Assembly (NCBI GenBank): GCA_963742115.1
Contig: CAVUKQ010000015.1
Coordinates: 113,832 to 177,831 of the forward strand
Length of the DNA stretch: 64,000 nucleotides
Reading direction: 5' to 3'
DNA from: an uncultured Gammaproteobacteria bacterium
GTDB lineage: Bacteria; Pseudomonadota; Gammaproteobacteria; Steroidobacterales; Rariloculaceae
Made by a program: the position numbers and the translations under genes. Positions 740-54,251 of the stretch are shown here, in pieces. Positions within the stretch are counted from its first letter, which is position 1; each line of letters starts with the position of its first letter. The notes under the pieces are model-generated. The model was not told the DNA's origin, did not search any database, and worked only from the letters and a program-made list of their open reading frames with translations.

Positions 740-1803
740 CTACTGTCTGATCCGGGGCGGCGCGGCGACCGGCTGGGCGGCGACTTCCCCTCTGGCGGCC
801 GCCTCGCGCTCCGCGGCGCGCTGGCCCGCGAGGATGTTCGCCATCCCGTAGTTGCCTTCCGTGCAGGCGTACTCGAACAGCACGCCGTGCAGATCCGTCA
901 GCGGATAGGTCCCGGCCCACGGCTCGGCCCAGGTCTCGGGATCGGTCACCGTGAACGAGTATTCCACGGTGTCCTTGCTCACGCGGGTCAGCCGCTCCGT
1001 CACGTGCATGTGCTCGCTCGCGTTGCGCCACGCGGTGGTCGGGTTGAAGCCCACCGTCTCGACCACGAACGTCGCGCCTTCCCAGTGGCCCACCGACGTA
1101 CCGTTCCATTGCGGGAGCTCGGAGCTGCGCGGCTTGCCGTCCGTCGGGATGATCCGCGGATCGCCCATCTCGCCTTGGATCACGACGTAGCCCGGGCTTT
1201 GGAAGATCTGCAGGTTGCTGTTGTAGCCGCCCGGGAGGATCGGCGGCAGCGTGCTCGGCCAGACGATGCAGCGCTCCGTAAGCCCGCGCATCTCGGCGGC
1301 GTCGAACTCGCGGCCCTTGCGCACCGCGGCGCGTGCGTCACGCCGCGCGATCGCGGCGGCCGTGAGCGCCGGAATCCGGCCGTTCTTCGGGCTCGTGATG
1401 ATCGACGTGCGCAGATTCGGCGAGGTCTTGCCCTCGTTCTGACTCAGCTTGAACGTGCCCATGTCGTAGTGCACGTCCTCGGGTGTGCCGGGCTTCGTCT
1501 CGTCGTCCTGGTCGACGGCCTCGAGCACCTTCTTCGCGTAGGTCTCGGCTTCCGCAGGCGAGTCGAAGTATTCCTTCTCGCCGAGCTCGGCCGGCCGCTC
1601 GAGCGGCGCGACGGTGAACTCGCTGAATTGGCCCGAGATGTCGGGCTCGCCCCAGGCGGTCTTCTGCGCCGACTTCGACTGCGCGACGGCACCGGTCGTC
1701 GCGCCGAGCGCGACGGCGACTGCGGCGGCGAGCGCCGCGCGCGCGAACGCGTTGGCGACGCGCGCCGTTCCAGCGGCATGACAGGTATCGGTCAAGTTTT
1801 CCA
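740..1803 (-). CDS. exported protein of unknown function (paralogue of 1809..2621)
   Basis: ATG at 1803 (MENLTD...). Signal peptide ...AVALGATTGAVAQ. Shares QIFQ, WEG(D/A)TFVVE(T/V), PW and E(Y/F)xC(T)E motifs with the upstream gene. Lies 5 nt after that gene's stop. Confidence 0.7.
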
Positions 1804-1808
1804 TCGTC

Positions 1809-2621
1809 TCACTCCCCCTTAGGCGCGGCGCCCTTGCGCAGATGACCGTAGAGCTTCTCTTCGGCGTACGGCTCGCACTTGAACTCCAGCAATCGGAAGC
1901 CGTCGTCGACGATGCGGTACAGCGGCATCCGGATCGTCCACGGCTTCGAGTACACGGTCGCGTCCTCGATCGTGGCCTCGTACCGCAGGTGGTTCGGCCC
2001 GAGCGGGGTATAGCGCTCGACGACCTTCGCGTTGCCGCTCGCGTAGTTGCCGGCGCGATCGAGCCACGTCTGCCCGTTGAGCCCAGTGACCTCGACGACG
2101 AACGTGTCGCCTTCCCAGCGCGCGTTCGACCAGCCCATCCAGCTGTCGAGCGGCGCATCGTCCTTGCCGTTCACGAAGATCCGGCGCATGCCCGTCGCGA
2201 ACTGATACACGATCACGACGTCTTTGACGTTCTGGAAGATCTGAAACGGGTACGGCATGTAGGTGGAGCGCGGCACCCCACCCATGTAGCACTTGCCCTC
2301 GGGATCGTCGGCAACGCGATTCGCGAAGTTCTGGTCTCGCTGTGCGACCGCCTCGGGCAGATACGGGATCTTGCCGCCGTCGATGACGCCCTGTCCGGGC
2401 GGCACCGCGAACTGCGCGCCGAGCTCGATCACCACGGGAAAGTCCGAGACGTGCGGCTCGAGGTTCCAGTGCGCGGTGTTCATGGCTTGCCAGACACCCG
2501 ACAGGTCGGGATGGCCATCGGCCGAGCGCGGGAATTCCTTCAGCGGCTCCGCCCCGACAGACCGGGCCGTGCCGAGCGCGATCGCGGCAAGCGCGACCGC
2601 CGACATGATGACGTGCTTCAC
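1809..2621 (-). CDS. exported protein of unknown function (paralogue of 740..1803)
   Basis: GTG at 2621 (or ATG at 2606). Signal peptide MSAVALAAIALGTARSVGA. PDLSGVW motif. The start overlaps the stop of the DUF6152 gene by 4 nt. Confidence 0.7.
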   Translation of the reverse strand: MKHVIMSAVALAAIALGTARSVGAEPLKEFPRSADGHPDLSGVWQAMNTAHWNLEPHVSDFPVVIELGAQFAVPPGQGVIDGGKIPYLPEAVAQRDQNFANRVADDPEGKCYMGGVPRSTYMPYPFQIFQNVKDVVIVYQFATGMRRIFVNGKDDAPLDSWMGWSNARWEGDTFVVEVTGLNGQTWLDRAGNYASGNAKVVERYTPLGPNHLRYEATIEDATVYSKPWTIRMPLYRIVDDGFRLLEFKCEPYAEEKLYGHLRKGAAPKGE

Positions 2622-3031
2622 GGGGACGGCGCCGCGGCGGCCGGCGACGAGCCTTCGAAGAACAGCGCTCGGCCGTCGGTGAACTTGATGTCGCGGCCCA
2701 CCGCGCGATTCGACCCGTCGCGCGCCTGATAGCCCTCGATCGAGAGCTCGGAGCCGACCGGCACCGACGCCTTCGTGACGCCGCGGCGCACGAGCGCGTT
2801 CGGGCTGCCGCCTTCGATCATCCAACGAACGGTGTTGCCGCTCGCGTCGACGACGTCGATGTGGATCCACGAGTGCGGATTGATGAGCTCGAGCTTCGCG
2901 ACCTTGCCCACCAGCGTGACGGGCTTCGCGACGTCGAACTCGGTCGCGAATGCGTGGTGGGCCTGGGCCGCGAGCGCGGCCCACGCGAGACCGAGACCCG
3001 CGAGGATCACGGTCAGCGGCTTGAATGCCAT
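2618..3031 (-). CDS. DUF6152-like small exported protein
   Basis: MAFKPLTVILAGLGLAWAALAAQA signal peptide followed by HHAFATEFD..., the typical DUF6152 N-terminus. About 137 aa. Confidence 0.65.
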   Translation of the reverse strand: MAFKPLTVILAGLGLAWAALAAQAHHAFATEFDVAKPVTLVGKVAKLELINPHSWIHIDVVDASGNTVRWMIEGGSPNALVRRGVTKASVPVGSELSIEGYQARDGSNRAVGRDIKFTDGRALFFEGSSPAAAAPSP

Positions 3032-3056
3032 GCAACTTCCCCCGGGAGCCTGTCGG

Positions 3057-4731
3057 CTACTCCGCAACGTCCTCCGAACCTGCGGCTATTCTCGCCGTAG
3101 CGGAGCCCGAGGTCGAGGTCGCCGCGGAGGCGATCAAGGACTCGATCAGCTCCGCCGTGTCTTTGTGCGGCTCGGCGGCCTGTCTCAAGAAATCTTCGCT
3201 GTAGTTGCCGCGGGCGAGGTCGAGAGGCGTCCGGCCGCGCGCGTCTTTGGCCTCGAGATCCGCGCCGTTGGCTGCGAGAAACTTGACGATCGAGTTGAAC
3301 CCCTTCATCGCGGCGCCGTGCAGGGCCGTGCGGTGCGGCACCGCGTCCGGGCTCGGCACCTGGCGGCCGCGCGTCGCGAACGTGTAGTTGCCCGCCCGAG
3401 CGGCGCTGTTGACGCCCTCGTACGGCCGGTCGCCGGTGTTCGGCTCCGCGATCATCCGCGCGTTCACGTCGGCGCCCGCGTCCACGAGCAACTGCATCGT
3501 CGCGAGCACGCCCTCCTCGGTGCGGTTGCGGCCGCGTGTGACGCGCAGGCCGTATTCGACGCCGGCCGCGGCCATCAGCGGCGTGACGCCGTTGTTGCTC
3601 GGCAAGTCGACGAGCGCACCGTGCTCGAGCAGGAGCTTCACGGCCGGCGCGTCGCCCGCGCGCGCGGCGCGCAGGAGCGGCGTCGCGCCGACGGACAGGA
3701 TCGTGTCGCCGCCGCGGTCGTTGGGAACGTTGCGGTACGGCGGCCGGCGCTTGAGCTGGATGTTCGGATTCGCGCCCTTGTCGAGCAGCAGTCGCGCGAC
3801 GTCGAGCCCCGTGTGCTTGTCCATGCTCGGGATCGCGGACATGGAGCCGCTGCCCTGCGTCGGCAGCGTGTTCATGTCGACCGCTTGGTACAGCGGCGTG
3901 CGGCCGAATAGGTCCCACTTGTCGACGTCGGCGCCCGCTTCGATCAGGTACGCCGCGAGGTCGAAGTGCAGATTGTTGATCGCGAGCGCGAGCGACGTGA
4001 CGCGCTCCGGGTCGGTGATGTCGATGTCCGCGCCGCCTTCGACGAGGTTCCGGGCGCAGGCAATGCAGCCTTCGCGCGCGGCATAGAGCAGTGCCGTGAA
4101 GCCGCCCCGGTTCATGTCTTTCGGCCGCGGCTCGGTGAGGATGCGGCGCTGCCAATCGCGCTCGAGGCCGCGCGCATCGGGGTCGGCGCCGTTCGCCGAC
4201 GAGGAACTTCACCATCTCGGGCTGGCTCTGCGCGGCGGCCCACATCAGCGCCGACTGGCCGCCCCATTCTTCCTTCGCGTTCACGTCCGCACCCGCCGCG
4301 ATCAGCAGCTTCGCGGACTCCACGTTGCCGGTGCGCGCGACGACCATGAGCGGCGTCTCACCCTCGGGGTTGGTATGGCGCACGTCGGCGCCCGCGTCCA
4401 CGAGCGCCTTGATGATCGGCGTCGCGCCGAGGACCGCGCCTTCGGACAGCGCGGTCGCGCCGTAATCGTTCACCGCGTTCACGTCGGCGCCGCCCTTGAT
4501 GAGCCGCGGCAACAGATCCGCGTAGCCGTGATAGGCCGCAAACATCAACGTGGTCGTGCCGTCGGCACCGCGCGCCTTCGCGTCTGCGCCCGCGTCGAGC
4601 AGCTTTGCCGCGGCCGCGTGATTGCCGGCCTCGAGCACGTCGAGCAACGTAGGCTCCGCGGCGGCGGCCCCCAAAGCGAGGGAGACGCCCGCGAGCGAGA
4701 CGGCCGCGAGCGCGGCGAAGTGGGCTTTCAT
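3057..4731 (-). pseudogene. exported ankyrin-repeat protein, reading frame broken once (about 4196-4197)
   Basis: N-terminal part (signal peptide plus ANK repeats, frame of ORF 3013..4731) reads ...PEMVKFLV. The continuation ANGADPDARGLERDWQRRILTEPRPKDMNRGGFTALLYAAREG... is in the frame of ORF 3057..4115. One extra nucleotide (coding gtcGgcgaac) separates them. Confidence 0.8.
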
Positions 4732-4734
4732 GTT

Positions 4735-6018
4735 CTAAACCTCCGTGAGCGTGCCGCCGCTGTCGCCGATCGACTCCACGGGGATTTGCGAGCGGTCGAA
4801 CAGGGTCACGAGCAAGTCGGCGAAGCGCGAGTCCTGCGGATACTTCAGATGCTGGCCGCCTTTGATCCGGCCGTGTGCGCGCCCGACGATCACCGCGGGC
4901 AGCGGGTCGTTGTTGTGGCGGTTGCTGTCGCTCATGTTGCTGCCGAACAGGATCGTCGAGTGATCGAGCACGTTGCCGTCGGTCTCCTTCGCGTTCGCGA
5001 GTCGATCGACGAACCCCGTGAACATCTTCGTGTGGAAGTTCTGGATCTTGACGAGCTTCTCCTGCTTGTCCGCGATGTTTCCGTGGTGCGACAGCGGATG
5101 GAACGCCTCGGAAATGCCGAGGTTCTGGTAGGAGCGCATGCTCGCTTCCTTGTCGAGCGAGAGCGTGATCACGCGCGTGAGGTCCGCCTGGAACGCGAGC
5201 CCCATCAGGTCGAACATCATCTGCATGTGCTCGACGATGTCGTTCGGCACGCCGATCGGCGCGTCGGGAATCTCGAGCGCGGAGTTGTCGGCCGTCGCGG
5301 CCATCTGCACGCGCCGCTCGATCTCGCGGACCGAGCTCAAATAGTCGTCGACGGCCGCGCGGTCGGCGCCGCCGAGCGAAGCCTCGAGCGCGTTCGCGTC
5401 CTCGCTGACGCGGTCGAGCAAGCTGCCCGTCTCGTGGACGATCGCCTGGCGTTCGGCGTCCGTGTCGCCCTGGCCGAACAAGCGGTAGAACACGGCCCGC
5501 GGATTGCCTTCCTGGGGCAGCGATTGCTTCGGAGTGCGCCACGCGACCTGCGCGCCGCGCAGCGCTGTGCACAGCTCGAGCGACGGTAGCCGCGTGTCTT
5601 GACCGATGTGGCGCGCTGCGAACTGGTCGGCCGTGACGCCGGCGTCGGGTCCGGCCACGCCCGCGTTGGCCATCGACACGCAGCTGAGCCACGTCCGCTC
5701 GATGTACGCGTGCGGCTCGGGGCTCTCGGCGGGCTTATTGCGCAGGCCCGACACGATCGTGAGGTAGTCGCGGTATTTGTCGAGCGGCTCGAGGATCGGC
5801 GGGATCTTGAAGTCCTTGCCGGCCTGCTCGGGTACCCAGCTCTTCATCACGGCACCCATCGGGAAACCGACGAACGCCATCCGCTGCGGGGCCTTCGCGG
5901 CGGTCGCCGCCCACGCCGTTCCGGCGGGAATCATCGCATCGAGTAGCGGCAGCGCGATCGTCGCGCCCGCACCCTTCAACACGGTTCGACGCGATAGATG
6001 CTTCTTCGTGATGAACAT
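4735..6018 (-). CDS. DUF1552 domain protein with Tat-type signal
   Basis: MFITKKHLSRRTVLKGAGATIALPLLDAM is the canonical DUF1552 N-terminus. 427 aa, intact. Stop lies 3 nt before the ankyrin gene start. Confidence 0.85.
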   Translation of the reverse strand: MFITKKHLSRRTVLKGAGATIALPLLDAMIPAGTAWAATAAKAPQRMAFVGFPMGAVMKSWVPEQAGKDFKIPPILEPLDKYRDYLTIVSGLRNKPAESPEPHAYIERTWLSCVSMANAGVAGPDAGVTADQFAARHIGQDTRLPSLELCTALRGAQVAWRTPKQSLPQEGNPRAVFYRLFGQGDTDAERQAIVHETGSLLDRVSEDANALEASLGGADRAAVDDYLSSVREIERRVQMAATADNSALEIPDAPIGVPNDIVEHMQMMFDLMGLAFQADLTRVITLSLDKEASMRSYQNLGISEAFHPLSHHGNIADKQEKLVKIQNFHTKMFTGFVDRLANAKETDGNVLDHSTILFGSNMSDSNRHNNDPLPAVIVGRAHGRIKGGQHLKYPQDSRFADLLVTLFDRSQIPVESIGDSGGTLTEV

Positions 6019-6092
6019 GTCGCTGTCTCCTAATCTCTCGCCAAATCTGCTCTCAAACCCTCGAAACTACGAACGCGCGGCTCGCGGACCGG

Positions 6093-8552
6093 TCATTTGC
6101 CGGACACGGCCTGGGCCGTCACTTGCGCTGGAATCGCTTCTTTCGACGTCACGCTCTCGGGCTTCTGCCGGAGCTGGAAGTCCTCGCTCTGCACGATCGC
6201 CCAGACGATCGACGCAAAGCGCCAATCGTCAGCCTTCGTCTCACGCACGATCCTGCGCACCGTCGGCATGTCGGCGTAGGTCAACGTGCGGCCGAGCGCG
6301 TAGGTAAGCAGGCGCTCGGTGAACGTCTGCACGAATTGGTCCGGGTGCTTGAGCAGCGCCGTGCGCAGGTCGTCGGGACCGTGCAGAGCCGTGCCGTCCG
6401 GCAGCTTGCCCGACGTGTCGAGCGGCGCGCCGTTGCTGAAGCGATCCACGTCGCGCCAGGTGCCGACCGCGTCGAAGTTCTCGAGCGCGAAGCCGAGCGG
6501 ATCCATGATGCCGTGGCACGAGAAGCACGTGGGATTCGTGCTGTGAGCCGCCATGCGCTCGCGAACGGTCGCGAAGTTCAGCGCGTTCGTCTCGTTCTCC
6601 TTCAGCGCGGGGACTTCGGCGGGCGGCGCGGTCGGCGGTGTGCCCATGAGATGCTCGAGAATGAACGCGCCGCGCAACACCGGCGACGTGCGGTTCGGAT
6701 ACGCGGCCGCCATGAGGATCGCGCCCTTGCCGAGCAGGCCGAAGCGTGTCGAGTCCGTCAGTTTCACGCGCTGGAACGTGTCGCCCTTCACTTCGGTGAT
6801 GCCGTACAGCAGAGCGACGCGCTCGTTGACGTAGGTGTGATCCGCGGTCATGAGATCGAGCACGCTGCGGTTCTCGTCGAAGATGCTCTGCGCGAACAGC
6901 TCGAGCTCGGTCATGAAGTCGCTGCGCGGGTCGCCGCTGCCGGAGGCGTACGGATAGACGGCGCGGTCCGGGTCCACTTCGTCCAAGCGCGCCATGTTGA
7001 GCCACTGCGGCACGAAGTTGCTGCCGAGCGTCGCGGCACGCGGGTCGGCGAGCATTCGGCTCACCTGGGCCTTGAGCGCGGCTGGCTTGCTGAGCTCGCC
7101 GCGGCTCGCGATGTCGCGCAGCTCGTCGTCGGGGATCGTGTTCCAGAGGAAGAACGAGAGCTTGGAGGCGAGCTCGAGATCGTCGATCTTGTAGCGCTCG
7201 CCGACGGCCAATGTCTCGGGTACGCGCTCGCCGCGATACAGGAAGTTCGGGTTCGCGAGAATGCCGGTGATCGCGCTGCGGATGCCTTCCTCGAATCCGC
7301 CGGCCGCGGACCCGTCGCGGTAGTAGCGCAGCAGCTTCTGCAGATCCGTCTCGGCGAGCGGCCGCCGGTACGCGCGCGTGCCGAGCGACGACAGGATCTT
7401 CTCGGCGCACAGCTCCGCGTCGTCGCCGCGCGACGGGTGACAGCTGAAGATGCGCTCGCGGCTCGGCGTCGGGCTCAACCCGCTCGCATTGAACGGGCCC
7501 GCGACCTGGAACGAGCTCACGCGGTAAATACGGTCTTGTCCGCCCCCCGGGACGAAGATCTCGAGCCGGTCGTCGGACTCGGCGTAGGTTCTACGCAGGA
7601 ACGTCACTCCGAGCTTGTGAGGACCCGCGGTCGCGCGGAACTTGATGTTCTTGAGGCCCGCGTTGATCGCGTCGAACGCTCCGGCCGGTTCCTGATCGTA
7701 GCGCTTCATGTCCTTGTCGCCGCCGATCACCGTCCTGTAGATCTCCTTGCTGTCGAGCGTCACGAGCACGGTGTTCTCGAACTCCATGTCGTTGCCCCAG
7801 ATGTGGCCCGCCATGTCCGCGATGTTGATCTCGTAGTCGCCGTCGGATGGGAAGTAGTGCTCGGCCAAGATCCCGCCGCGCGTGCCTAGCGGCAGACCCG
7901 GCAGGTGCGTTTGCTGCGTGCCGGGCTTCGCGTTGTACGTCGTGCTGCCGGGCCGCGCATCGGGCCGGCCCACGGCCTGCACGGCAACCGTGCGCGCCGC
8001 GATCATGTACTGCTCGATGAACGACGGGGACACCTGCAGCGCGCTCGCGATGTTGTCGAAGCCGCCGGCGACCTCGTCCTGCGGGAGAATCGTGGCCGCG
8101 TCGATGTCGAGGTCGAGCAGGTCGTGCACCGCGTTCGCGTACTCCTTGCGATTGAGGCGCTGCAGCGTGATCCGCTCGGGGACGCGATTCGCGGCCGCTT
8201 TGTCGAGCGACCCCTCGAGCCACGACACGAACGAATAGAGCTGCTGCTCGTCGGGCCGCGGCTCCTTGGGCGGCGGCATCAGGTGGCCGCGGAGCTTGCG
8301 CACGGCCTTCTCGAAGGCCTCGGCGTTCGCCGCGACGTTCTCGGGCCCCATCTTGTCGAACGAGAGCTGGCCCGCGAGCTCGGTGTCGTTGTGGCACTCG
8401 ACGCAATACTTCTTCACGAGCTGCCACTGCTCGCCGCCATCCGCGGCGGCGCGCGACCCCGCGTCGAACTTTCCGCAGCCCGCGACGAGCGCGAGCGCGC
8501 AACCTAGCGCGACGCGCTTCGTAGTTAGGAGTTGCATTAGGACCCCGCTCAT
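6093..8552 (-). CDS. DUF1592/DUF1588/DUF1587/DUF1585/DUF1595-type multidomain lipoprotein with two CxxCH haem-c motifs
   Basis: 819 aa. Lipobox LVAGC. CVECH near the N-terminus and CFSCHGIMDPLGFALENFD near the C-terminus. This is the usual partner of DUF1552. Confidence 0.85.
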   Translation of the reverse strand: MSGVLMQLLTTKRVALGCALALVAGCGKFDAGSRAAADGGEQWQLVKKYCVECHNDTELAGQLSFDKMGPENVAANAEAFEKAVRKLRGHLMPPPKEPRPDEQQLYSFVSWLEGSLDKAAANRVPERITLQRLNRKEYANAVHDLLDLDIDAATILPQDEVAGGFDNIASALQVSPSFIEQYMIAARTVAVQAVGRPDARPGSTTYNAKPGTQQTHLPGLPLGTRGGILAEHYFPSDGDYEINIADMAGHIWGNDMEFENTVLVTLDSKEIYRTVIGGDKDMKRYDQEPAGAFDAINAGLKNIKFRATAGPHKLGVTFLRRTYAESDDRLEIFVPGGGQDRIYRVSSFQVAGPFNASGLSPTPSRERIFSCHPSRGDDAELCAEKILSSLGTRAYRRPLAETDLQKLLRYYRDGSAAGGFEEGIRSAITGILANPNFLYRGERVPETLAVGERYKIDDLELASKLSFFLWNTIPDDELRDIASRGELSKPAALKAQVSRMLADPRAATLGSNFVPQWLNMARLDEVDPDRAVYPYASGSGDPRSDFMTELELFAQSIFDENRSVLDLMTADHTYVNERVALLYGITEVKGDTFQRVKLTDSTRFGLLGKGAILMAAAYPNRTSPVLRGAFILEHLMGTPPTAPPAEVPALKENETNALNFATVRERMAAHSTNPTCFSCHGIMDPLGFALENFDAVGTWRDVDRFSNGAPLDTSGKLPDGTALHGPDDLRTALLKHPDQFVQTFTERLLTYALGRTLTYADMPTVRRIVRETKADDWRFASIVWAIVQSEDFQLRQKPESVTSKEAIPAQVTAQAVSGK

Positions 8553-8573
8553 AGCCAGCCTCGGTAGGTGTAA

Positions 8574-9512
8574 TCAAGCATCGGGCGTTAGATAGGCCCA
8601 TAGACTTCGAAACGACCGCGCCACGAATTCGTCCGGGTTGCCCATCGCGGCGTCGAACTCTTTGGTCGGATTCGCGGCGACGGCTTCGTCGGGCCCGCGC
8701 CCCGTGTACAGCAGCTTGGCGAGCCGCTCCCAGACGACGTTGTACATGTCGTATTGGCGCTGCAGCTCCGCAAACTTGAGCACCGGGCCGCGGGCCGGGA
8801 CGATCCGCGTGTCGGCGTTCGCGATCTTCAAGAGATGCTGGAGCCCGCCGACGAGGCCGCCGATCCAACCGCCGGTCCACCAATCGGGCAGCTGCCAACC
8901 GTCTCCGGAGAGCGCGCCGCCCACGGCGAGCACGTTGGCATCCGGCAGGAACACGTACATGTCGCCGTCGGTATGCGGGCAATCACGCAGATGGCCGTAC
9001 TCGATGTGCTTGTCGCCCGCCGCGAGCTCGCCGCGCGAATAGAACGTCTTGTTCGGGCGCGCGCCTTGCGGCAACGGCTGAACGGTTTCGTGGCTCCACG
9101 GCCAAGTGACGTCGGTCGTCAACCACAGCCGTGTGTTCTCTTGCGCGATGATCGTCGCGCCGGCCTTGCCGAGCGTCTCGTTCAAGCCGGTCTGCTCGGG
9201 GTGCCAATGCGTGTTGAACAGCGTGTGGATCGGACCCGCGCCGGGGAGCGCCGCGACGGCCTTCATGAGCGCCGCCGAGACGCCGGCCGACGCGCCGTCG
9301 ACGAGCGCGGCGCCGTCGACGCCCGTGAGCGCGAGCACGTTCGAACCCGCGGCCGTGAGCACGTGCAGGCCGTCGCCGAGCTGCTGCACGAGTACGTCGT
9401 CCGCGCGCGCTTGCGCGCGCGCGCTGCCCGGGCGCAGCGCCGGAAGCCCGAGCGACATTCCGGCGAGGCCGAGCGCCCCGTGCAGTACCTTCCTTCGCGA
9501 CGCGTAGCGCAT
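8574..9512 (-). CDS. MBL-fold metallo-hydrolase with Tat signal and atypical metal motif
   Basis: MRYASRRKVLHGALGLAGMSLG Tat-like signal. THWHPEQTG replaces the HxHxDH motif. 312 aa. Start lies 4 nt after the TBDR stop. Confidence 0.75.
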   Translation of the reverse strand: MRYASRRKVLHGALGLAGMSLGLPALRPGSARAQARADDVLVQQLGDGLHVLTAAGSNVLALTGVDGAALVDGASAGVSAALMKAVAALPGAGPIHTLFNTHWHPEQTGLNETLGKAGATIIAQENTRLWLTTDVTWPWSHETVQPLPQGARPNKTFYSRGELAAGDKHIEYGHLRDCPHTDGDMYVFLPDANVLAVGGALSGDGWQLPDWWTGGWIGGLVGGLQHLLKIANADTRIVPARGPVLKFAELQRQYDMYNVVWERLAKLLYTGRGPDEAVAANPTKEFDAAMGNPDEFVARSFRSLWAYLTPDA

Positions 9513-9515
9513 GGG

Positions 9516-12500
9516 TTAGAAGCTCACAGCCAGACCGACGTAGTAGCGGCGGCCCAACGTGTCGTAGTTGCCCGCGACTCGTGACACCCATCGCATTCGT
9601 CGGGTTGTTCGCGTTGGTCGGGTTCGCGCCGACGATCGGCGGCTGCTGATCGACGATGTTGTCGACACCGCCGCGCACCCGCATGCGCTCGTTGAATCGC
9701 CACGAGAAGTTCATGTTGAACAGATTGTAGGCCTCGGTGTTCTCCACCGTCAGCGTCGGCGTCTGCACCTTCGCGGAGTTTACCGCCTCGGGCAGGTAGC
9801 GCCAGTTCAAGCCGACGCTGAGCTTGTCTCTGCTGTACGAGAACTGCGTGAACAACCGGTAGTCGTAGTACGAGGTGCCGGCGCCGGCGGTGCCCACGTA
9901 CTCGAGCATCGGTGAATCGGGATCGGCCGCCGCCGGCTGCTGCCACGAGAACAGGTCGTTGATCGACGACTGGATGCCGAACTCGCCGCCGAGCATTTGC
10001 TTGCGCCAGGTCAGGCTCAGATCGAGACCGGACGTATAGCGCTTGCTCAAGTTGAAGTTGCCGCCTTCGACGTAACCCGCGTTGCCGGTCTCCGGATCGC
10101 GGTGAATCGCCTGGCAGAACTCGTTCTCGACGGAGTAGCTCGGGTTGCTGACGCCGTTGACGTTGAAACACTGCTGATACGCGGTCAGGAACCCGAGGCT
10201 GTCGACGACGTCCGCGATCTCGATCTCGTAGAGGTCCGCGGACAGCGTGATGTCGCGATTCTGCGGCTGCCAGATCATGCCGAGGGTATAGGTGTCGCCC
10301 GTTTCGGCGCGCAGCCGAGGATTGCCGGTCGTGAGCAGGCGATAGACGTTGGCCGACTCGCCGCCGTCGATCGGGAAGTTGTCGCGGCCCGCGTCGAAGC
10401 GGTTTTGGCCCGGTATGCCGCCTTCCTTGTAGATGAGCTCGGCGCAGAGCTGCTGCATCGCGGCCCGGTTCGGGTTCGACGCGAGGTTGCCCCACGGGTG
10501 CGTCGTGTCCGCGCGGCATGCGTCGCCGGCCGCCCACGTGTACACCTGGCCGGTCGGGCCCGAGTACAGCTCGGCGACGTTCGGCGTGCGGTTGGCGCGC
10601 TGCCAGCCGCCGCGGAACCGGAAGTTGTCGGTCGCTTCCCAGTTGAACAAGAACTTGTAGGACATCGCGTCGAGCTGGAAGTCGCCGGTTTGGAAGTCCG
10701 AATAACGCGCGCCGATCTCGAGCTCGAACTTGCCCACGACCGGCATCAGGACCTCGCCGTAGACCTCGTCGACGTTGGTCTCGCCCGAGGCAGGCACGGT
10801 CGCGAGGAACAACGCATCGGGCTCGAACACGCTCTCGTTCATGCGCGAGCTCAGGCCGAACGCGCCGCGCAGCTCGCCCGCGGGCATATCGGCGAGCTTG
10901 CCCTGGAAGTTCGCCTCCGCCACGCGTTGGTCCACGACGTTGCTTTTGCGTCATGCGTGCGGTGACGGCGGTGAGGCAGTCCTGCGAGATCTGGAAGTCG
11001 TTGTAGTACTGCGCCTCGCCGTGGTCGCCGAGAATCCAGGGCTCGAACAGCGGCAGACCCGACGTGCAGGTGAAGTCTTGGGTATTCGTGCTGTTCGCGG
11101 CCTGCGCCGTGAAGGCGCCGCCTTTGCCGTAGTTCGGCTGCCGCACGAGATTGGCGTAGCGGTCGAGCCACACGAAGTTCTTCATGTCCGTCAGAAGAAC
11201 CGTCTCGCCGTACGACGTGTAGGCCTCCCACGTCCAATCGGTGTCGCCGATCTTACCGTCGACGCCGACGACGAACTCGGCGAGCTTCGTGTTGTTCGAC
11301 GACGCGCGGTTCGGGTACCAATAGGCGATGCGGCTCAGGGTAAAGTCCGCGTTCGGATTCACGCGAGAATCGAGCAGCGCCCCGAGCTCGGCGGGCACGG
11401 GCCACGCTTCCGAGGTCGTGCAGCCGCCCGTGGGCGCGCAGTTGAGGCCTTTCGAGCCGCCCGGCCGATAGGCAGTCAGCGTGTTGCCTTGCGCGTCGAC
11501 CGACGGCGCGTAGATCGCGCTGCCGTGCGGCACCAGGACGCCCGTGAGCGGCGTCGGGTACAGCACCGTGTCGACCTCCGTCATCACGAACGTTCCCTGC
11601 ACGAACACGGACATCTTGTCCGTGAGGTCGTAGTTCGCGCGGCCGAATGAGGAGTAACGGGTCAGCGGCGTGGACGCGTACGAGCGCGGGCTGCCCTCCT
11701 CCAAGCTGCCGTTGTGAGTCCGGATCTTGTAGGGAAACGTCTGTGGTCCCGTATAGGCGAGCGCGTTCTGCTGCCGGAACACCGTGGCGTCCAACGGATT
11801 GGTGTAGAAGTCCACGGTGCGCGATTGGTTCGTCGTGGTGCCGAGCACCTGATTCACGACGGCCTGCGACGGCAGGTTGTTGGCCGCCGGCGTGTAGTAC
11901 GGGTAGTCGATGCGCGGATAGTTCGCGGGCGTGCCGGGGTCGTTGAAGCCCTCGACGAAGAAGTCCCGGTTCATCTCCCACGCGGGCTCGCGGTTCGCAT
12001 AGCCGACGCTGAACATCGCGTTGCCGCGGTCCTCGTCGAAGTTGCCGCCGACCAGGACGTCGAAGCGGCTCTCTTCACCGTCGTTCGCATCCGTGAAGCC
12101 GGTTTGATAGTTGATGTCGATGCCTTCGAAGTCCTTTCTCAACTTGAAGTTGACGACGCCGGCCATCGCGTCCGGGCCGTAGGTGGCTGCGGCACCGCCG
12201 CTGATGACTTCGACGTCCGCGATCGCGGCGGCCGGAAGCGTGTTGACGTCCACCGTCATTGCGGCGTTGACGGGCTGCGCGCGCCGGCCGTCGAGCAGCA
12301 CGAGACTGCGGTTCGCGCCGAGGCCGCGCATGTTGAGCGTCGAGGCGCCGGGCGACGTCGTCGCCGTCGGCTGAATCTCGCCGGTCGTGAACTGCGTGGC
12401 CCCGGGGTTGAATTGCGGGTACTGATTCAGAACGGCTTCGATCGCGACGCTGCTGTTCTGCTGAAAGACCTCGGTGCCGACGGTGATGATCGGGCTCGGT

Positions 12501-12730
12501 GCATCGAAGTCGCGGCGCACGATGCGCGAGCCGGTCACGAGCACTTCCTCGAGCTTTTCGGTGCCCGGTTGCTGCTGTTGGCCGAAAGCCGGGCCACCGG
12601 CGCCCACTCCGGCCGCGATTGCGCACAGAGCGGCGGCAATCGGTGTGAGCTCTAAGCGCGCGAGCGACGCGCGATTGTTTCGTACGGCAGACCTACTTGC
12701 GGCAGGAATAACAGAAGGTGGAGAAACCAT
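9516..12730 (-). pseudogene. TonB-dependent receptor, frame broken twice (about 10944-10947 and about 9571-9573)
   Basis: Plug plus barrel N-terminus is in the frame of ORF 9524..12730 up to ...TARMTQ. The middle part (NVVDQRVAEANFQGK...PTNAMGVTSRG) is in the frame of ORF 8983..10935. The C-terminal NYDTLGRRYYVGLAVSF* is in the third frame, with its stop at 9516. Paralogous to the receptor at 50648..54251. Confidence 0.85.
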
Positions 12731-12927
12731 TGACGCCCCCGATTATGACTTTTGTATATTGTTTTCCGTGCTGGACGGATTTATAGAACAGAGCATGACA
12801 CGACCCCCAATGCCCGGCTTCGTGCTCGCGGAACGCTGTGAGCATTGCGCTCGACCAGCCTCGCGATTCTCGATGCTCCGTCCGCGTCCGTAGGGTTGAT
12901 AGGCCCGCGGAAGTTCTACTAGCTGGT

Positions 12928-12939
12928 GATACTAGTATC
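12928..12939. promoter_or_regulatory. perfect 12-bp AT-rich palindrome GATACTAGTATC, candidate operator
   Basis: Lies in the 446-bp divergent region between the TBDR operon and the MmyB-like regulator. The neighbouring TACTAG is repeated 13 nt upstream (12917). Confidence 0.3.
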
Positions 12940-13176
12940 TGAAATACCACCATTCGGCTGACGAACCGGATGGACTGGCGGGGGACGAATGGCGCTGCGC
13001 GCCTGGGGTGCCGCAGCTTGGTCAAGCGCTCGAACGATCGCGGATCGATCGAGCCCGCGCGCCTCGTGGGCGGCGTCATGCGGCGAAATAGGTATGGAAA
13101 AAGCGGTTCAAGCGCGCATCCTGCTGTAACGTTTTAGCGGATCCGCTCGATTCGACCGCGCACTCAACCGGGGGGT

Positions 13177-14073
13177 ATGGGGGCAATGGCGGCACGTAAG
13201 GAACAGATCAGAGAGCTTCTCAGGCGCGCGCGTGCGCGCATCGATCCGACGGAAGTGGGCTTCCGCCAGGCCGAGAGGCGCCGGAGCCCGGGCCTGCGCC
13301 GCGAGGATGCAGCCGTGCTCGCGGGCATGAGCCTCAAGTGGTACACGTGGCTCGAGCAGGGCCGAGACATCAACTTCTCGCTCGACGTGCTCGATCGGGT
13401 GTCGCGCGCGCTGCGGCTGTCCTCGGCCGAGCGCGAATACCTTCTCGGGCTCATGCAGCGGCGCGCAGCGCCGAGCGTCGACCGCGGCGACACGCTGACC
13501 GAAACCGTTTGGCGCACGGTGCAATTCGTGCCGGTGCCCGCGCTGGTGATGACGCTGCGCTGGGACATCGTCGCGTGGAACCATCTGATCTCGCGGATCT
13601 ACCGCGATTACTCGACCGTTCCGCGGAGCGAGCGCAATCTGCTGCGGATCATCCTCACGGATCAGAAATATCAGAGCGATCCGCAGTCGTACGACGTGAT
13701 CGCGCGCAAGCTGCTCGGCGAGTTCCGCGTCGATTTCGGCCAATACGCCGGCGACCCCGCGTTCGAGCAACTCGTCGAGGAGCTCAAGCAGACCGTCCCC
13801 GGGTTCGAGCAGCGCTGGAACGACGTGGAGATCTGCAACTCGCCGCGCGGCAGCATCGTGCAGCACGACGAGCTCGGCGAGCTGTCGTTCGATCGCGTCT
13901 CCTATCTGCCCGAAGGGAGCACGTTCCTGCGCGTGATTATGTTTACGCCGCGCGACCCGCAAACGGCGCGAACCCTCGACGCGATTCGCGCAGAGAAGGG
14001 CGTGGGGTCGTCGTCGCCCAAGGCGAGCCAGGTCAGCGAGTTCGAAGTCCTGCGCCACACCAATCGTCACTAG
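13177..14073 (+). CDS. XRE-family HTH regulator with MmyB-like ligand-binding domain
   Basis: N-terminal HTH (RREDAAVLAGMSLKWYTWLEQGR) followed by the SAEREYLLGL segment typical of MmyB-like regulators. 298 aa, intact. Confidence 0.75.
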   Translation: MGAMAARKEQIRELLRRARARIDPTEVGFRQAERRRSPGLRREDAAVLAGMSLKWYTWLEQGRDINFSLDVLDRVSRALRLSSAEREYLLGLMQRRAAPSVDRGDTLTETVWRTVQFVPVPALVMTLRWDIVAWNHLISRIYRDYSTVPRSERNLLRIILTDQKYQSDPQSYDVIARKLLGEFRVDFGQYAGDPAFEQLVEELKQTVPGFEQRWNDVEICNSPRGSIVQHDELGELSFDRVSYLPEGSTFLRVIMFTPRDPQTARTLDAIRAEKGVGSSSPKASQVSEFEVLRHTNRH

Positions 14074-14284
14074 CGGTCGGCGAAGACGCGCGGCTCGCTT
14101 GCACGGCGCGGCGAGCCGCCTTCATAATCGCCGGACTATGACGTCCTCGATCCCACGCTTCGACAGCGCCTTCGCCCCGATCCCGGGCTCGATCCTGCGC
14201 GCGCCCTCTTTCGTACTCGACCTCGTAGTCGTAGCGAAGATGCGCGCTGGCCGGGTTTAGAGAGACGTAACGAACGAATCAAAA

Positions 14285-14320
14285 CCCCCGCCGGTGCGAA
14301 CCGGCGGGGGTTTTCTGTTT
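14285..14320 (+). terminator. intrinsic terminator hairpin (possible attenuator)
   Basis: CCCCCGCCGG-tgcgaa-CCGGCGGGGG followed by TTTTCTGTTT. Located about 50 nt upstream of the ALS start codon. Confidence 0.6.
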
Positions 14321-14368
14321 CTAGGGCTCCTGCCGGCAACGCCGGAAAAAACACGAGGAGCTCCTGTC

Positions 14369-16083
14369 ATGACACGCCACACGGGCGCAGAGATCACAGT
14401 CCGCTTGCTGGAGCGGCAAGACGTCGCAACGATCGCGGGCATTCCGGGCGGCGCCGTCCTGCCGCTCTACGACGCGCTCGCACGCTCGCCGCACGATTCG
14501 CCACGTGCTCGCGCGCCACGAACAAGGCGCCGGCTTCATCGCCCAAGGCATCGCACGCGTGACGGGACGGCCCGGTGTCTGCATCGCGTCGTCGGGCCCC
14601 GGCGCCACGAATTTGCTCACGGCCATCGCCGACGCGAAGCTCGACTCGATTCCGCTCGTCGCGATCACGGGCCAAGTGCCGCGCGCGATGATCGGCACCG
14701 ACGCGTTCCAAGAGGTCGACACGTTCGGTCTCTCGCTGCCCATCACGAAGCACAACTATCTCGTCCAAACCGCGAGCGATCTCACGCGCGTGATTCCGGA
14801 GGCGTTCGCGATCGCTTCGTCGGGGCGGCCCGGCCCCGTGCTGATCGACATTCCGAAAGACGTGCAGACCGAGATGGCCGAAGTCGCGGACTGGCCCGAT
14901 CCCGGCGCAGCGGCCCCGCTCCGAGCCGCGCCGGACTCGGCGATCGAGCGCGCGGCTGCGATGATCGAGGCCGCCGAACGGCCGATTCTCTACCTCGGCG
15001 GCGGCATCGTGCACTCGGGCGCGGCGTCGGCCGCGGTCGCAGTCGCCGAGCGCTCGGCGCTGCCGACGGTGATGACGTTGATGGGGCTCGGCGCGCTGCC
15101 GACGAATCACCGGCTGTCGCTCGGCATGCTCGGGATGCACGGCGCGCCGTACACGAATCGCGCGCTCGACGAGTGCGACCTCCTGATCGCCGTCGGTGCA
15201 CGGTTCGACGATCGGGCGACCGGCAAGCTCACGGAGTTCTGTCCGCGCGCCGCGGTGATCCACGTCGACATCGATGCCGCCGAGCTCGGCAAGCTCCGGA
15301 GCCCCGAGCTGGCGATTCGCGGCGACGCGCGCGGCGTGCTCGACCGCTTGCTCCCGCGGCTGCGCGAGCGCCCGCGCTCGCGCTGGCTTGCGCGCGTCGC
15401 GCAATTGCAGCGCCGCCACCCGCTGCACCTTCCGGAGCGTCGATTCGGTGCGCAGCCCCTATGGGCTCATCCGCGCCGTCGCGGCGGCACTCGATGACGA
15501 TGCGATCGTCACGACGGACGTGGGTCAACACCAGATGTGGGTCGCGCAGGCATTCCCGCTGCGCCGCGCGCGCAGCTGGCTCACCTCGGGCGGCCTCGGC
15601 ACGATGGGTTTCGGCTTGCCGGCCGCGATCGGCGCCGCGCTCGCGGCACCCGATCGAACGGTCGTGTGCTTCTCGGGCGACGGTTCGATCCTGATGAACC
15701 TGCAGGAGCTCGCGACCGCCGCGGAGGAGGACGTGAACGTGAAGATCGTGCTGATGAACAACCGCTCGCTCGGGCTCGTGTATCAGCAACAGACGTTGTT
15801 CTACGGCCGACGCGTGTTCGCGTCTGCGTATCGCAAGTCGCCGGACTTCGTCGCGTTGATGCGTGGATTCGGGATCGAAGCGCTCGATCTCGACGGCGCG
15901 CGCGACGCACGGGGCGCGCTCGCGGCCGCGCTGCGCCGACCCGGGCCATGCCTGATTCACGCGACGATCGACACCGCGGAGCAAGTGCTGCCGATGGTGC
16001 CGCCGGGCGCGGCCAACACGCAAATGATCGTGCGAGGAGCGCGAGCCGAGCCACACGAGCTCGAGACCGTCGCGACGGAATGA
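14369..16083 (+). pseudogene. ilvG: acetolactate synthase large subunit (IlvG-like), frame broken twice (about 14486-14496 and about 15425-15450)
   Basis: GAGGAG RBS plus ATG at 14369. MTRHTGAEITVRLLERQDVATIAGIPGGAVLPLYDALARSP / IRHVLARHEQGAGF...PGPVLIDIPKDVQ... / ...SPYGLIRAVAAAL...TTDVGQHQMW...GLGTMGFGLPAAIGA... lie in three successive frames. Confidence 0.85.
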
Positions 16084-50647: not shown

Positions 50648-53600
50648 TTAGAAGTCCATCGTAAAGCTCACGAAGCCGCGGCGCCCGAGGGGGTCGTAGG
50701 TCGCGAGCAACGTTTGCGGGAGGAAGCCGCCCGCATGCGTCGCCGGCAGCGCGAACGGCAGCTGATCGGGATTGCCGTTGATGAGCGGCGGCTCCTCGTC
50801 GAACAGATTGTCGATACCGGCGCGCAACGTGTACCGCTCGCCGAACCGGTAGCTGCCCGCCAGACTGAACAGCTGGTAGCTGTCCGAGACACCGGGGGAG
50901 TTCGCGTTGCCTTGCCGTTTCGCAAGATCGCAGGCGGTCGGAGTCGCGAGCGGCGTAGCGCACGGGCCCGGGTCGATCGAGGGCCAGAATTGGTGCCGCA
51001 GCGACAAGCTCCACGGTCCGCGGAGGTAACTCAACGTCGTGAAAACCCGGTATTCGAATCCCTGGCATTGGATCTGCAAAGCGCAGCCCGAGGTCCCGGC
51101 GTAGTCCGTCGTCGTCGCGCCCGGTTGATCCTGGGTCTCGGAACCCATGTTGTAGTTCATGACCGAGTTGAGGTTGAACCCGCCGCCCGCCAGCATCGTC
51201 GACCAGTTGAGCTGAAGATCGACGCCTTCGACCTTGGCTCTGCCCTTGTTCGTATACGGCAAATCGATATTCGCGGCGTTGCCGTTGGTCGGATCCCTGA
51301 AGATCTGCACGCAACCGGGCGCAGTAGCGCTCCCCGTCGGGTTGTCCGCGAGGCTCAGACAACGGCCGTACACCGAGTCGATACTCTCGAGCGCGATCAT
51401 CCTCTCGATCTCGATCGTGTAGTAGTCGACCGTGAGCGTCCAGTTCTCCGCGAGGTCCATGACCATGCCGATCGTGAGCGTGTCGGCGTCTTCCTCGGTC
51501 AGCTCCGGGTTGCCGAGCTGATTCTGGATGCCGGTGCCTCCCGCTGTCGCCTGAGTATTGGCGTAGAACGTGGCCGCGCCGAGCGGGCCCATCAGCGCCC
51601 TGCAGATCGCCTCGGTCTGAGCGGCTTGCGCCGCGCCCGCTATGGCGGCGTTGGCACTATATGGTCCGGCGGAGTTCAGCCTCGAGCACTGATCGCCGAC
51701 GATCGACGGCGCGCCGCCGAACAGCTGCGTGCGCTCGGTGAACAGCTCGCTCAGATTCGGGGCGCGGTGCGCGCGATTGACGCCGCCGCGCAGCCGATAC
51801 CTCTCCGAGAATCCCCAGTCGATCAACGCCTTGTACGAGTCGAGTGTCTCGACACCGTCCATGCTCCAATCCGATAGGCGCCCGCCGAGCTCGACGTTGA
51901 AATGCTCGAAACCCTTCGGGCCGTTCGAGACGATCGGGATCAGCAGCTCGCCGTACAGCTCCGCCACGTCGTAGTCGCCGCCGCTGTTCTGGTTCGGGAA
52001 CAGACCCGCGATCGGATCGATGAAGTTCTCGTTCTGACTCAGGTTATCGGGCTTGAAGCTGTAGCTGTCTTCGCGATAGTCCGCTCCGAGCGCGTACGAG
52101 AGAGTTCCGGCCTTCATCTCCGCGAGGTCGCCGGTGATATTGGCCTCGAGCACGCTCTGCGTGATTTCGTAAGTGTTCTTTAGGTCGGGGGACAGCGCCG
52201 TGACGCAGTCGGGCGAGACCGCGAAGATCTTCAGCACCGGCAGGCCCGTGTTGCAGGTCGCGATACTTTCTGCGAAGCCGGTGATGTACGCGTTCGGATC
52301 GGCGATGAACCCATGACCGAAGTTCGGCGAGGCCATGATCGCTCGATAAGTGCTGAGTCGCACGGAGCCGGTCTGGGTGGTGATGTTGTCCGTAAACCCG
52401 GTCGAGAGCGTCACGTCCCAGTGGTGCTTGCCCTCGGCCAAGGCGCCTTCGAAGCCGAGCGAGAACTGCGACGTCGAGGTCGTGGTCTGGCCTCCACGCG
52501 GGCCGATCACTTCTCTGATGTAATCGGGCGGCGCGCTGAGCCACAGCGGCGCCGTGGCGCCGTTGCCGAACCCCGAGGCTGCCGCGCGGGTGCTGTAGAG
52601 CTGCGAAACCTCGGGCGGCACGGGCCAGGCCTGCTTCTCCGTGCAGCCGCCCGTAGCTGGGCAGTTGAGCCCGAAGCGGCCGCCCGCCAGGTATTCGGCG
52701 TTCGTCGTGCCGTCCAAGTTCAATGACGACGGTATTCCGCGCAGTGCGTCGCCCGTGTAGACGTTGTCGCCGAACGGGATCGGCGCGCCCCAAAAGGTGA
52801 TGTTGTCGGCGCTGAGCCCGAGGCTCGTCTCGGTGGCCGTGCGCGTGAACATCGCTTGGCCCGTCACCGTAACGTTATCGGAGACGTCGAAATGGCCCTT
52901 GGCAAACACCGAGTTGCGCTCCAACGGAGTCGAGGACCACTGCCAGAAGTTGTTCTCCTTGATGCCGCCGTCGGGCTGGACCACGCGGTACGGCAGGCCT
53001 TCGAAATTGCCGTAAGAGTCTTGGTCGTAAGCGCCGGCGTAGCGATACGAGCCCGCGTTGCCGGGAGCGTTCATGAGACCGCCGTACACCTGGCCCGTGG
53101 CCCGGTCGACGAAGAAGTTGGCAGTGTTCGGTACGCCCAGGTTCCTTCCGATCGAGCCCGGCTGCGTGCTCGTGTTGCACACGCTGCCGTTATTCCCGAA
53201 GAAACCGAAACCGTTAGCGGGGCTGGGCGGGGCTTCGACGCATTGACCCGCGACGCCCGCCTTGTTGAACAGCGCGTCGACGCCGGCTTGGCTCGGGTAG
53301 TTACCGGCGTTGAATGCATCGAGGTTGGCGGCGCTGCCGGGCCCGAAACCCGGAATGGTGCTGCTGATCCACGGATCGCTGCCCCAGAAGAATGCGGTGG
53401 CGTTGGTGGCGGGGTTGCGCATGTCTTCGACGCGCCAGTCACGTTCCCACGTCTCGACCTTCGCGCGCGTCGCGCGCTCGAGGCCGATCATGACGTTGCC
53501 GCGGCCCTCGGCGGCGTTGACGCCGAGGAGTCCCGAGATCAGGACCTCCTGGCCGCCGCCAGCCTCCGTGTCCGAGAGGCGGGTCTCGACCGAGGCACCT

Positions 53601-54251
53601 TCGAAGTCGTTCTTCAGAATGAAGTTGACGACGCCGCCGACGGCGTCCGCGCCATACACGGCCGAGGCACCGCCCGTGATCAACTCGACGCGTTGGATCG
53701 CCGAAGACGGGATCATGTTCGTGTCGACGAACATTTGTGCGTTGAACGGCTGCGCGCGCTTGCCGTCGATCAGCACGAGGTTACGGTTCGCACCGAGGCC
53801 GCGCAGGCTCACGAAGGATCCGCCGATACTGTTGTTGGCGGTTTGCTGAACGTCGGTGGTCGAGAACTGCGTGATGGCCGGAACGAACTGCGGCAACTGG
53901 TTCAGGATGGTCTCGACGCCGACGGTGCCCGTCGCCTGAAAGGCAGCCTGGTCGATCGTCGTGATCGGGGCATTGGCCTCGAAATCGCGACGCAAGATAC
54001 GCGAGCCCGTGACGGTGATCTCTTCGAGCGGCGCTGCCGGCTTGCTCCTGCGCCCCCGCCCGATTCGCCGGGGCGATTGCCAGCGCCGACGCGATAATCG
54101 CGCTGCCCGAGGCGGCCAGCATCGTCGACCTCAAGCCCTTGCCGTGCAACCTGCGACTTGCGGTCGACATCGCTCCAAGCGCGTCCGCGATTGCGGTGGC
54201 CAGCACGCCAGTCTGCAGACGGACGAATCCGCCATCGGTGCTTGCGTTCAT
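50648..54251 (-). pseudogene. TonB-dependent receptor, signal peptide separated from plug and barrel by one frame break (about 54030-54060)
   Basis: GGAGGA RBS plus ATG at 54251. MNASTDGG...LAASGSAIIASALAIAPANRAGAQEQ is in one frame, and (P)LEEITVTGSRILRRDFEANAP... plus 1115 aa is in the next. C-terminus reads ...GRRGFVSFTMDF*. Confidence 0.85.

Follow-up and report, generated by a model that had tools for sequence, protein, structure and literature searches.

Do eight tightly packed genes for exported proteins, headed by a TonB-dependent receptor (TBDR), form one uptake-and-processing pathway, or do they combine gene sets with separate histories? The question is raised by a locus in a 64,000-nucleotide (nt) stretch of DNA, referred to below as the window, from an uncultured gammaproteobacterium of the family Rariloculaceae (GenBank assembly GCA_963742115.1, contig CAVUKQ010000015.1, positions 113,832 to 177,831). 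The genes encode, in order, the TBDR, a metallo-beta-lactamase (MBL)-fold protein, a DUF1592-type lipoprotein, a DUF1552 protein, an ankyrin protein, a DUF6152 protein and two further secreted proteins, here called g7 and g8. A regulator of the MmyB type is transcribed divergently from the TBDR gene. The original prediction, made from the sequence of the window, regarded the array as one transcription unit and as a complete uptake-and-processing system, possibly redox-linked. Our comparison with other genomes indicates that the array very probably consists of three separately inherited units that have been joined: the regulator and TBDR (unit A), a cassette of the MBL, DUF1592, DUF1552 and ankyrin genes (unit B), and the trio DUF6152-g7-g8 (unit C). 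What looked like one transcription unit is, to judge by this comparison, a recent juxtaposition in this lineage and not a co-inherited eight-gene pathway.

The DUF1552 protein was used to scan one genome per species, which gave 80 loci at 64-96% identity, and the window proteins were mapped onto all of them; loci in other genomes are given L numbers below. In 58 of the 61 loci having sufficient flanking sequence, the order MBL-DUF1592-DUF1552-ankyrin was found on one strand as in the window, so that this portion of the predicted gene order is strongly conserved. Two of the 58 have an insertion between the DUF1592 and DUF1552 genes, and two further loci contain DUF1552 and ankyrin genes only. 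The insertions, of ~2.4 kb (L057, 7526-10001) and ~0.95 kb (L063, 9053-10001), both occur in Bryobacterales. Independent gene calls with precomputed Pfam assignments agreed on the cassette, and the ankyrin gene follows the DUF1552 gene in every orthologous locus. Paralogous copies of the cassette keep the four components, sometimes reordered as DUF1592-DUF1552-MBL-ankyrin or DUF1592-DUF1552-ankyrin-MBL. The hosts are metagenome-assembled genomes (MAGs) of Gammaproteobacteria, together with Vicinamibacterales, Bryobacterales and Terriglobia, at identities of 55-96%. Because all four periplasmic proteins are 55-72% identical between phyla, the comparison suggests that the cassette was transferred between phyla as a block.

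The genes on either side of the cassette are distributed differently. A TBDR heads the cassette in two of the 80 loci, L003 and L004. The L004 receptor is 58-62% identical to that of the window and was called as an intact 1018-aa gene 53 nt before the MBL gene (L083/L004); here TBDR and cassette occur without an adjoining trio. Only L003 shares all eight genes, and only there does the trio stand behind the cassette in this order. In a related organism, L001 (78-90% nucleotide identity), the flanks on either side are collinear with those of the window, with acetolactate synthase at one end and DUF6152-g7-g8-DUF1097 at the other (blastn matches of L001 7524-9359 to window 16034-14216 and of L001 9618-11787 to window 3001-797). 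Between these flanks L001 has 258 bp where the window has ~11.2 kb (3002-14215), comprising the regulator, the TBDR gene and the four-gene cassette. This block is present in L003, and the regulator accompanies it there and is missing with it from L001; unit A is, on this evidence, specific to this lineage. The trio recurs as a three-gene unit in four other contexts (L085, L086, L087/88 and, as a fragmented copy, L002), and from this recurrence and the L001 layout it follows that the trio is probably an independent unit.

These observations go against two parts of the original prediction. It had made its case depend on conservation of the order TBDR-MBL-DUF1592-DUF1552-ankyrin-DUF6152-paralogues in relatives, and this order is not conserved, since the TBDR is rare at the cassette and the trio is separable from it. 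Nor did the idea of a single complete uptake-and-processing unit of all eight genes survive, given that L001 has only the trio, and none of the other five genes, at this chromosomal site, and that the trio stands by itself in L086 and L087/88. For the same reasons, and because the flanking genes vary in order and composition, it is unlikely that all eight genes form one dedicated pathway and act together on a single substrate, even though several findings agree with that view. Among these are the tight gaps, including 25 nt between the ankyrin and DUF6152 genes, an RNA contig that crosses this junction, and the identical eight-gene layout in L003. In addition, g7-family and DUF6152 genes occur within 10 kb of Acidobacteriota cassettes (for example in L012, L014, L041 and L049), and in L085 the trio has a cassette paralogue at a distance of 4 kb.

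Soil metatranscriptomes contained near-identical RNA contigs over parts of the array. These contigs crossed the junctions between the MBL and DUF1592 genes (8409-8608), between the DUF1592 and DUF1552 genes (5763-6319 and 5903-6137), and between the ankyrin and DUF6152 genes, where unit B meets unit C (2866-3189). One contig ends at 12774, between a TATAAA sequence just before it and the TBDR start 44 nt further on, which is a weak hint that a transcript starts here. Scans for consensus promoters and terminators gave nothing beyond chance level. The predicted co-transcription of the array is therefore supported at three junctions, which falls short of proof, while the TBDR/MBL and DUF1552/ankyrin junctions had no coverage in the four RNA runs. 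Unit C lies behind the ankyrin gene because the 11.2-kb block formed by units A and B separates it from acetolactate synthase, and from this position unit C is probably read through.

As given in the window, the TBDR gene switches frame twice (~10942 and ~9575) and the ankyrin gene once (~4196), as would be expected if both were frameshifted pseudogenes in a decaying, non-functional array. We checked these sites against contigs of four independent soil metagenomes, which contain 44-55% of the 31-mers of the region, and of two metatranscriptomes. All metagenome contigs over the sites lack one base at 4196 (or 4194), 9575 and 10942 (or 10944), and the RNA contigs likewise lack the extra base at 4196 and 9575. 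Removal of the three bases restored uninterrupted open reading frames (ORFs) of 1070 aa for the TBDR and 557 aa for the ankyrin protein. The gene for the acetolactate synthase large subunit (14294-16083) also changes frame twice, with independent metagenome contigs one base shorter at 14488/9 and 15438, and these contigs are one base shorter at the intergenic sites 14311, 12958 and 13138 as well. This part of the window carries a single-base insertion error every ~2-3 kb; rpoBC, fusA and tuf are long unbroken ORFs. The nearest public MAG, L003 (MFD02242.bin.1.297; 91.6% nucleotide identity), differs from the window by ~100 indels over 14 kb, and its DUF1592 gene has 16 single extra bases, so that gene calls there are expected to be fragmented. 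Since independent contigs are one base short at each site and the acetolactate synthase gene was hit by like errors, the frame breaks are consensus errors of long-read-type assemblies; the genes are intact and are not pseudogenes. Decay of the locus is barely credible in light of these results, and we dropped the pseudogene reading.

Once the frames had been restored, the description of the individual genes in the original prediction held up well. The G+C content of the window is ~67% and spurious ORFs are plentiful; genuine frames were recognised by composition and homology. All eight genes were present on the minus strand from 12730 down to 740, closely packed, with successive intergenic gaps of 3, 21, 74, 3, 25, -4 and 4 nt. 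The first six gaps are as claimed, and the last, given as 5 nt, is 4 nt with the ATG at 1804 as the start of g8. Pfam confirmed every domain call (TBDR, MBL, DUF1592, DUF1552, ankyrin, DUF6152), as well as a helix-turn-helix (HTH_31) and an MmyB ligand-binding domain in the divergent regulator. The products carry export signals, judged by eye only: twin-arginine translocation (Tat) motifs SRRKVL and SRRTVL, a lipobox (LVAGC) and Sec-type leaders. As predicted, none of the products belongs to a family of known substrate. An NCBIfam search of the array proteins added no specific family, and Protein Data Bank (PDB) sequence searches with the MBL, DUF1592, DUF1552, g7, DUF6152 and TBDR proteins returned only generic domains. 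Elsewhere in the window, positions 29600-64000 are core chromosome, with ribosomal protein operons, secY, rpoA, tuf, fusA, rpoB and rpoC.

What might the conserved cassette do? Its first product, the 312-aa MBL-fold protein (9512-8574, minus strand), has a Tat-type leader and matches Pfam Lactamase_B at 3.1e-08 (34 bits, cut-off 22.7). Its motif T-H-W-H-P-E-Q retains both His residues of HxHxDH, with Asp replaced by Glu and the last His by Gln. For each of the residues H102, H104, E106, H180, D182, D184 and D210, conservation among orthologues is 90% or higher, and it is complete (65 of 65) for H102 and H104. The nearest named families were the class B core and then SoxH-related metallohydrolases of a 'quinoprotein relay system' (NCBIfam, 29 bits), the latter match being treated as a lead, not as membership. 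The protein resembles the TIGR04558/TIGR04559 metallohydrolases, which are periplasmic MBL-fold proteins whose neighbourhoods contain pyrroloquinoline quinone (PQQ) dehydrogenases and c-type cytochromes. However, it is not a member of either family, as it scored 29.3 and 28.8 bits against cut-offs of 300 and 280 and has HxHxEQ in place of HxHxDH; the function of the TIGR04558/TIGR04559 family is itself unproven.

The second product is the 819-aa DUF1592-type lipoprotein (8552-6093, minus strand), to which the lipobox noted above, read from sequence, belongs. A borderline N-terminal cytochrome c domain (class-I-like, CVECH) is followed by PSD3, PSD5, PSD4 (DUF1592), PSCyt3 (CFSCH) and PSD2, all five above their Pfam cut-offs. 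The two CxxCH motifs that had been predicted are present and conserved among orthologues, C50 in 68 of 69 and C676 in 76 of 76. In a PDB sequence search, the weak matches obtained were to cytochrome c subunits only.

The 427-aa DUF1552 protein (6018-4735, minus strand) matches PF07586 (HXXSHH) at 1.8e-83 (281 bits, cut-off 30) and also the TAT_signal model, and its H307-P-L-S310-H311-H312 motif is invariant among orthologues. A sequence profile found no relative in the PDB. We built an AlphaFold2 (AF2) model, which had a confidence (pLDDT) of 58 and for which the alignment was limited to close homologues (at least 74% identity). The top 50 Foldseek matches of this model in the PDB were all members of the alkaline-phosphatase superfamily, at E values of 8e-4 to 0.3 and a TM score of ~0.33, and included the iPGM-like protein PH0037, LtaS/LtaP, sulfatases, phosphonate monoester hydrolase, alkaline phosphatase and YejM. 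On the basis of this model, it is moderately likely that DUF1552 has an alkaline-phosphatase-superfamily fold. The last product of the cassette is the secreted ankyrin protein (4731-3057, minus strand), which matches several Pfam ankyrin families. We also considered whether its C-terminal tail was born by insertion into an old intergenic region; this idea was uninformative, as the tails of orthologues vary similarly.

The phosphatases, phosphotransferases and sulfatases among these structural matches would fit a locus for scavenging phosphorus or sulfur esters, in which an organic phosphate or sulfate ester imported by the TBDR is hydrolysed by the DUF1552 and MBL proteins, with the cytochrome and ankyrin proteins in accessory roles. 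Phosphodiesterases and alkylsulfatases are known among enzymes with the MBL fold, and L079 has a gene for a GDPD phosphodiesterase in the vicinity of its cassette. Sulfatase genes have been found beside PSCyt genes in Verrucomicrobia (PMC5615132). We nevertheless consider ester scavenging very unlikely, because it leaves unexplained both the strict conservation of the haem sites and the pairing with PQQ dehydrogenases described below. In DUF1552, moreover, neither the catalytic nucleophile nor the first metal ligand of the superfamily was identified, and the regulator is of the MmyB type, not the PhoB type.

To identify genes associated with the cassette, flanking ORFs were clustered and representatives were run against Pfam. 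The commonest neighbour was a PQQ-dependent dehydrogenase (PF01011), which occurs in 29 of the 80 loci at a distance of up to 10 kb, and in ~22 directly upstream on the same strand. A second PQQ enzyme family, GSDH (PF07995), was near the cassette in six loci, and one gammaproteobacterial locus combines the cassette with GSDH and two PQQ dehydrogenases. A cassette with a PQQ dehydrogenase at its head is seen in L079, where the genes run PQQ dehydrogenase, MBL, DUF1592, DUF1552, ankyrin and DUF3738, with gaps of 66, 7, 13, 3 and 56 nt; among the flanking ORFs scanned at this locus, none showed a cytochrome c domain. Together with the invariant haem motifs, the recurrence of PQQ dehydrogenases next to orthologues of the cassette lends support to the earlier suggestion that the system is redox-linked. 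The motif W-D-[YF]-D was present in ~30 of 37 cassette-linked PQQ dehydrogenases, at loci that include L026, L037, L049, L054, L057, L063, L068, L071-L074, L076 and L079-L082. The extra Asp of this motif is reported to be essential for lanthanide binding in XoxF-type enzymes (PMC10875860).

Several other features were seen around these cassettes. In L079, positions 2447-4524 encode a 328-aa fragment of a PQQ dehydrogenase and then an HNH endonuclease, just upstream of the full-length PQQ dehydrogenase gene that heads the cassette. Extra MBL-fold genes occur near the cassette in Bryobacterales (L079 15397-18595; L076, L081, L082, L035, L053), and L079 has three of them in a row followed by another ankyrin gene.

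In this lineage, unit A takes the place at the head of the cassette. The regulator gene (13177-14073, plus strand) encodes a protein that matches PF17765 (MLTR ligand-binding; 9.7e-32) and PF13560 (HTH_31; 1.4e-08). It is separated from the TBDR gene by a 446-nt divergent intergenic region (12731-13176), which is richer in AT immediately before the TBDR start. This region contains the TATAAA(T) sequence (12785-12779, minus strand) and a 12-nt inverted repeat (13028-13054). A Pho-box-like direct repeat upstream of the TBDR gene was considered and dropped, as its spacing was wrong by eye. The TBDR (12730-9516, minus strand) contains Plug (PF07715, 9.9e-17) and TonB barrel (PF00593, 8.2e-26) domains, and the corrected protein ends in ...YYVGLAVSF, with the terminal aromatic residue expected of a TBDR. 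Its substrate class (siderophore, B12, haem or carbohydrate) was not revealed by NCBIfam, where all matches were far under the cut-offs (e.g. 48 vs 317 bits), or by PDB sequences, where solved receptors were matched in the plug domain only. An Rfam scan of the whole 64 kb found no family at its gathering score, so the TBDR leader gives no clue to the substrate. A second large TBDR-like ORF is found at 50651-54130 of the window.

In unit C, the stop and start codons of the three genes overlap or abut. The first gene (3031-2618, minus strand) encodes a 137-aa DUF6152 protein (PF19649, 1.2e-32; 112 bits, cut-off 27) with a His-His pair right after the signal peptide (AQA|HHAF). HH[AST][FYWN] directly follows the leader in all readable homologues; ~35 residues further on, another His is conserved, in the motif NPH[ST]W or QANHAE (motif homologues from L001, L004, L014, L019, L022, L023, L028, L039, L049, L052, L085 and L086). 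This conservation suggests that the His residues form a putative metal site that uses the mature N-terminus. The g7 gene (2621-1809, minus strand) encodes a secreted protein of 270 aa that has more than 8000 homologue clusters, the best 120 at 76-93% identity, and its family is very abundant in MAGs of soil Gammaproteobacteria. No model for this family was found in Pfam or NCBIfam. The AF2 model of g7, like that of DUF1552 based on close homologues (at least 74% identity), was of low confidence, with a beta-rich C-terminal half, and a fold search with it gave no significant match. The last gene (1804-740, minus strand) encodes g8, a secreted protein of 354 aa without a Pfam match, which always follows g7 in relatives. 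The two had been predicted to be secreted paralogues, and BLASTP agrees (37% identity over 126 aa, E = 8e-14). In the four Acidobacteriota loci named above, ankyrin, g7-family and DUF6152 genes and a gene for the membrane protein DUF6644 follow one another in that order on the same strand downstream of the cassette, which hints at a g7-family/DUF6152/DUF6644 unit.

The His-His pair of DUF6152 and the lanthanide-marking Asp in most linked PQQ dehydrogenases are also what one might expect if the locus supplied metal or cofactor to periplasmic quinoproteins. The TBDR would then import a metal chelate, for example a lanthanide carrier, and the cassette and DUF6152 would release, handle or insert the metal. 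TBDRs are described as participating in lanthanide uptake by methylotrophs (PMC7391723). The trio is also divergent from GSDH-DarP-PQQ dehydrogenase genes in L087/88. Yet the window is without a PQQ dehydrogenase, and the two conserved haems would be left unexplained. Sites rich in His are better suited to copper or zinc than to lanthanides. Moreover, the locus lacks an ABC importer and any known lanthanide-binding protein; no homology to lut proteins or lanmodulin was found, but no search aimed at them was made. For these reasons we attach little probability to a role in metal supply.

Comparison with known systems provided partial parallels. Pairing of DUF1592 and DUF1552 was noted in 2017, when the function was wholly unknown (PMC5615132). 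Like the PSCyt3/PSD + DUF1552 pairs of Planctomycetes and Verrucomicrobia, whose PSD set is DUF1585/1587/1588/1592/1595, the cassette has the arrangement PSD3-PSD5-PSD4-PSCyt3-PSD2 and an adjoining Tat-signal DUF1552. Unlike those pairs, it is a fixed four-gene unit with MBL in front and ankyrin behind, it occurs in Gammaproteobacteria and Acidobacteriota, and it is headed by a TBDR or PQQ dehydrogenase. A c-type cytochrome domain and DUF1587 (PSD3) are likewise combined in Cbp2D of Cellvibrio japonicus, a secreted multidomain protein proposed to donate electrons to lytic polysaccharide monooxygenases (LPMOs) (PMC8981238). In contrast to the DUF1592 protein, Cbp2D has carbohydrate-binding and X domains and lacks both the PSCyt3/PSD2/4/5 set and a DUF1552 partner, and there is no LPMO at the window locus.

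Two further systems bear on the receptor and the ankyrin protein. TBDR-headed utilisation loci of Proteobacteria combine a receptor, periplasmic enzymes and a dedicated regulator. The array shares with them the divergent regulator, the large TBDR in first position and the periplasmic enzymes behind it, but has no inner-membrane transporter, glycoside hydrolase or enzyme of known specificity. In the KatB-AnkB system of Pseudomonas aeruginosa, a periplasmic ankyrin protein supports a haem enzyme, and here too a signal-peptide ankyrin gene is directly beside the gene for a putative haem protein. AnkB, however, is small and has a catalase as partner, whereas the protein encoded here has 557 aa and DUF1552/DUF1592 as partners. 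We found no literature on DUF6152, the four-gene cassette or its link to PQQ enzymes in a search that lay outside most subscription journals, and only incidental mentions of DUF1552/DUF1592.

Taken as a whole, the reading that fits best is that, within a three-unit mosaic locus of an uncultured soil gammaproteobacterium, an importer controlled by the regulator supplies a haem-linked hydrolase module in the periplasm, and we consider the chances that this full reading is right or wrong to be evenly balanced. The high probability given at the outset applies to its architectural part. The mechanistic part, in which we infer every biochemical step, is tentative. The MmyB-type regulator would sense a small ligand and switch on the TBDR, and with it control the TBDR-cassette block. 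The TBDR would bring the substrate into the periplasm, where DUF1552 and MBL, acting as metallohydrolases, would process this substrate or the product of a periplasmic dehydrogenase. The membrane-anchored DUF1592 protein, by means of two c-type haems, might carry electrons between these reactions and the respiratory chain, and the ankyrin protein may scaffold the partners. The trio would be a separate periplasmic binding or metal module that is read through here. In many other genomes, the cassette is headed by a PQQ dehydrogenase instead of the TBDR, and the sole cytochrome of the operon available for the electrons of this enzyme would be DUF1592.

Several points weigh against this reading. 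No PQQ dehydrogenase lies within the 64-kb window, and no component has a characterised relative, so that no substrate or reaction has been shown. The DUF1552 model is of low confidence, and inspection of the protein sequence by eye did not reveal the first metal-binding Asp typical of the superfamily. Besides leaving two junctions uncovered, the RNA contigs are strandless and may include DNA. The absence of the block from L001 may reflect either an insertion here or a deletion there. Finally, g7-family genes are near the cassette in 24 of 80 loci and DUF6152 genes in 14 of 80, other phyla included, as is also seen in L085, and unit C may be functionally tied to unit B after all.

One consequence of these results is that tight spacing alone overstated the unity of this "operon". 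They also provide the first definition of a fixed four-gene unit, which has a PQQ dehydrogenase in front in many genomes and a regulated TBDR in this lineage. What was a vague "DUF pair" thereby becomes a testable set of partners: electron donor, metal binder and hydrolase. Two more protein families that are abundant in soil but have no annotation are the g7 family and the DUF6152 proteins with their His-His pair. Among exported proteins of Planctomycetes and Verrucomicrobia that are still uncharacterised, the PSCyt/PSD cytochromes and their DUF1552/DUF1501 partners rank with the most numerous, and they are found here in soil Acidobacteriota and Gammaproteobacteria as well. A bolder view, which we regard as quite unlikely, is that the cassette is an unrecognised periplasmic electron-relay and processing complex, widespread in Acidobacteriota and Gammaproteobacteria of soil and serving lanthanide-signature PQQ dehydrogenases. 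DUF1552 would then represent a redox-coupled branch new to the alkaline-phosphatase superfamily, with DUF1592 as the dedicated cytochrome partner. If true, this would be the first function for the 'planctomycete-specific' PSCyt3/PSD proteins.

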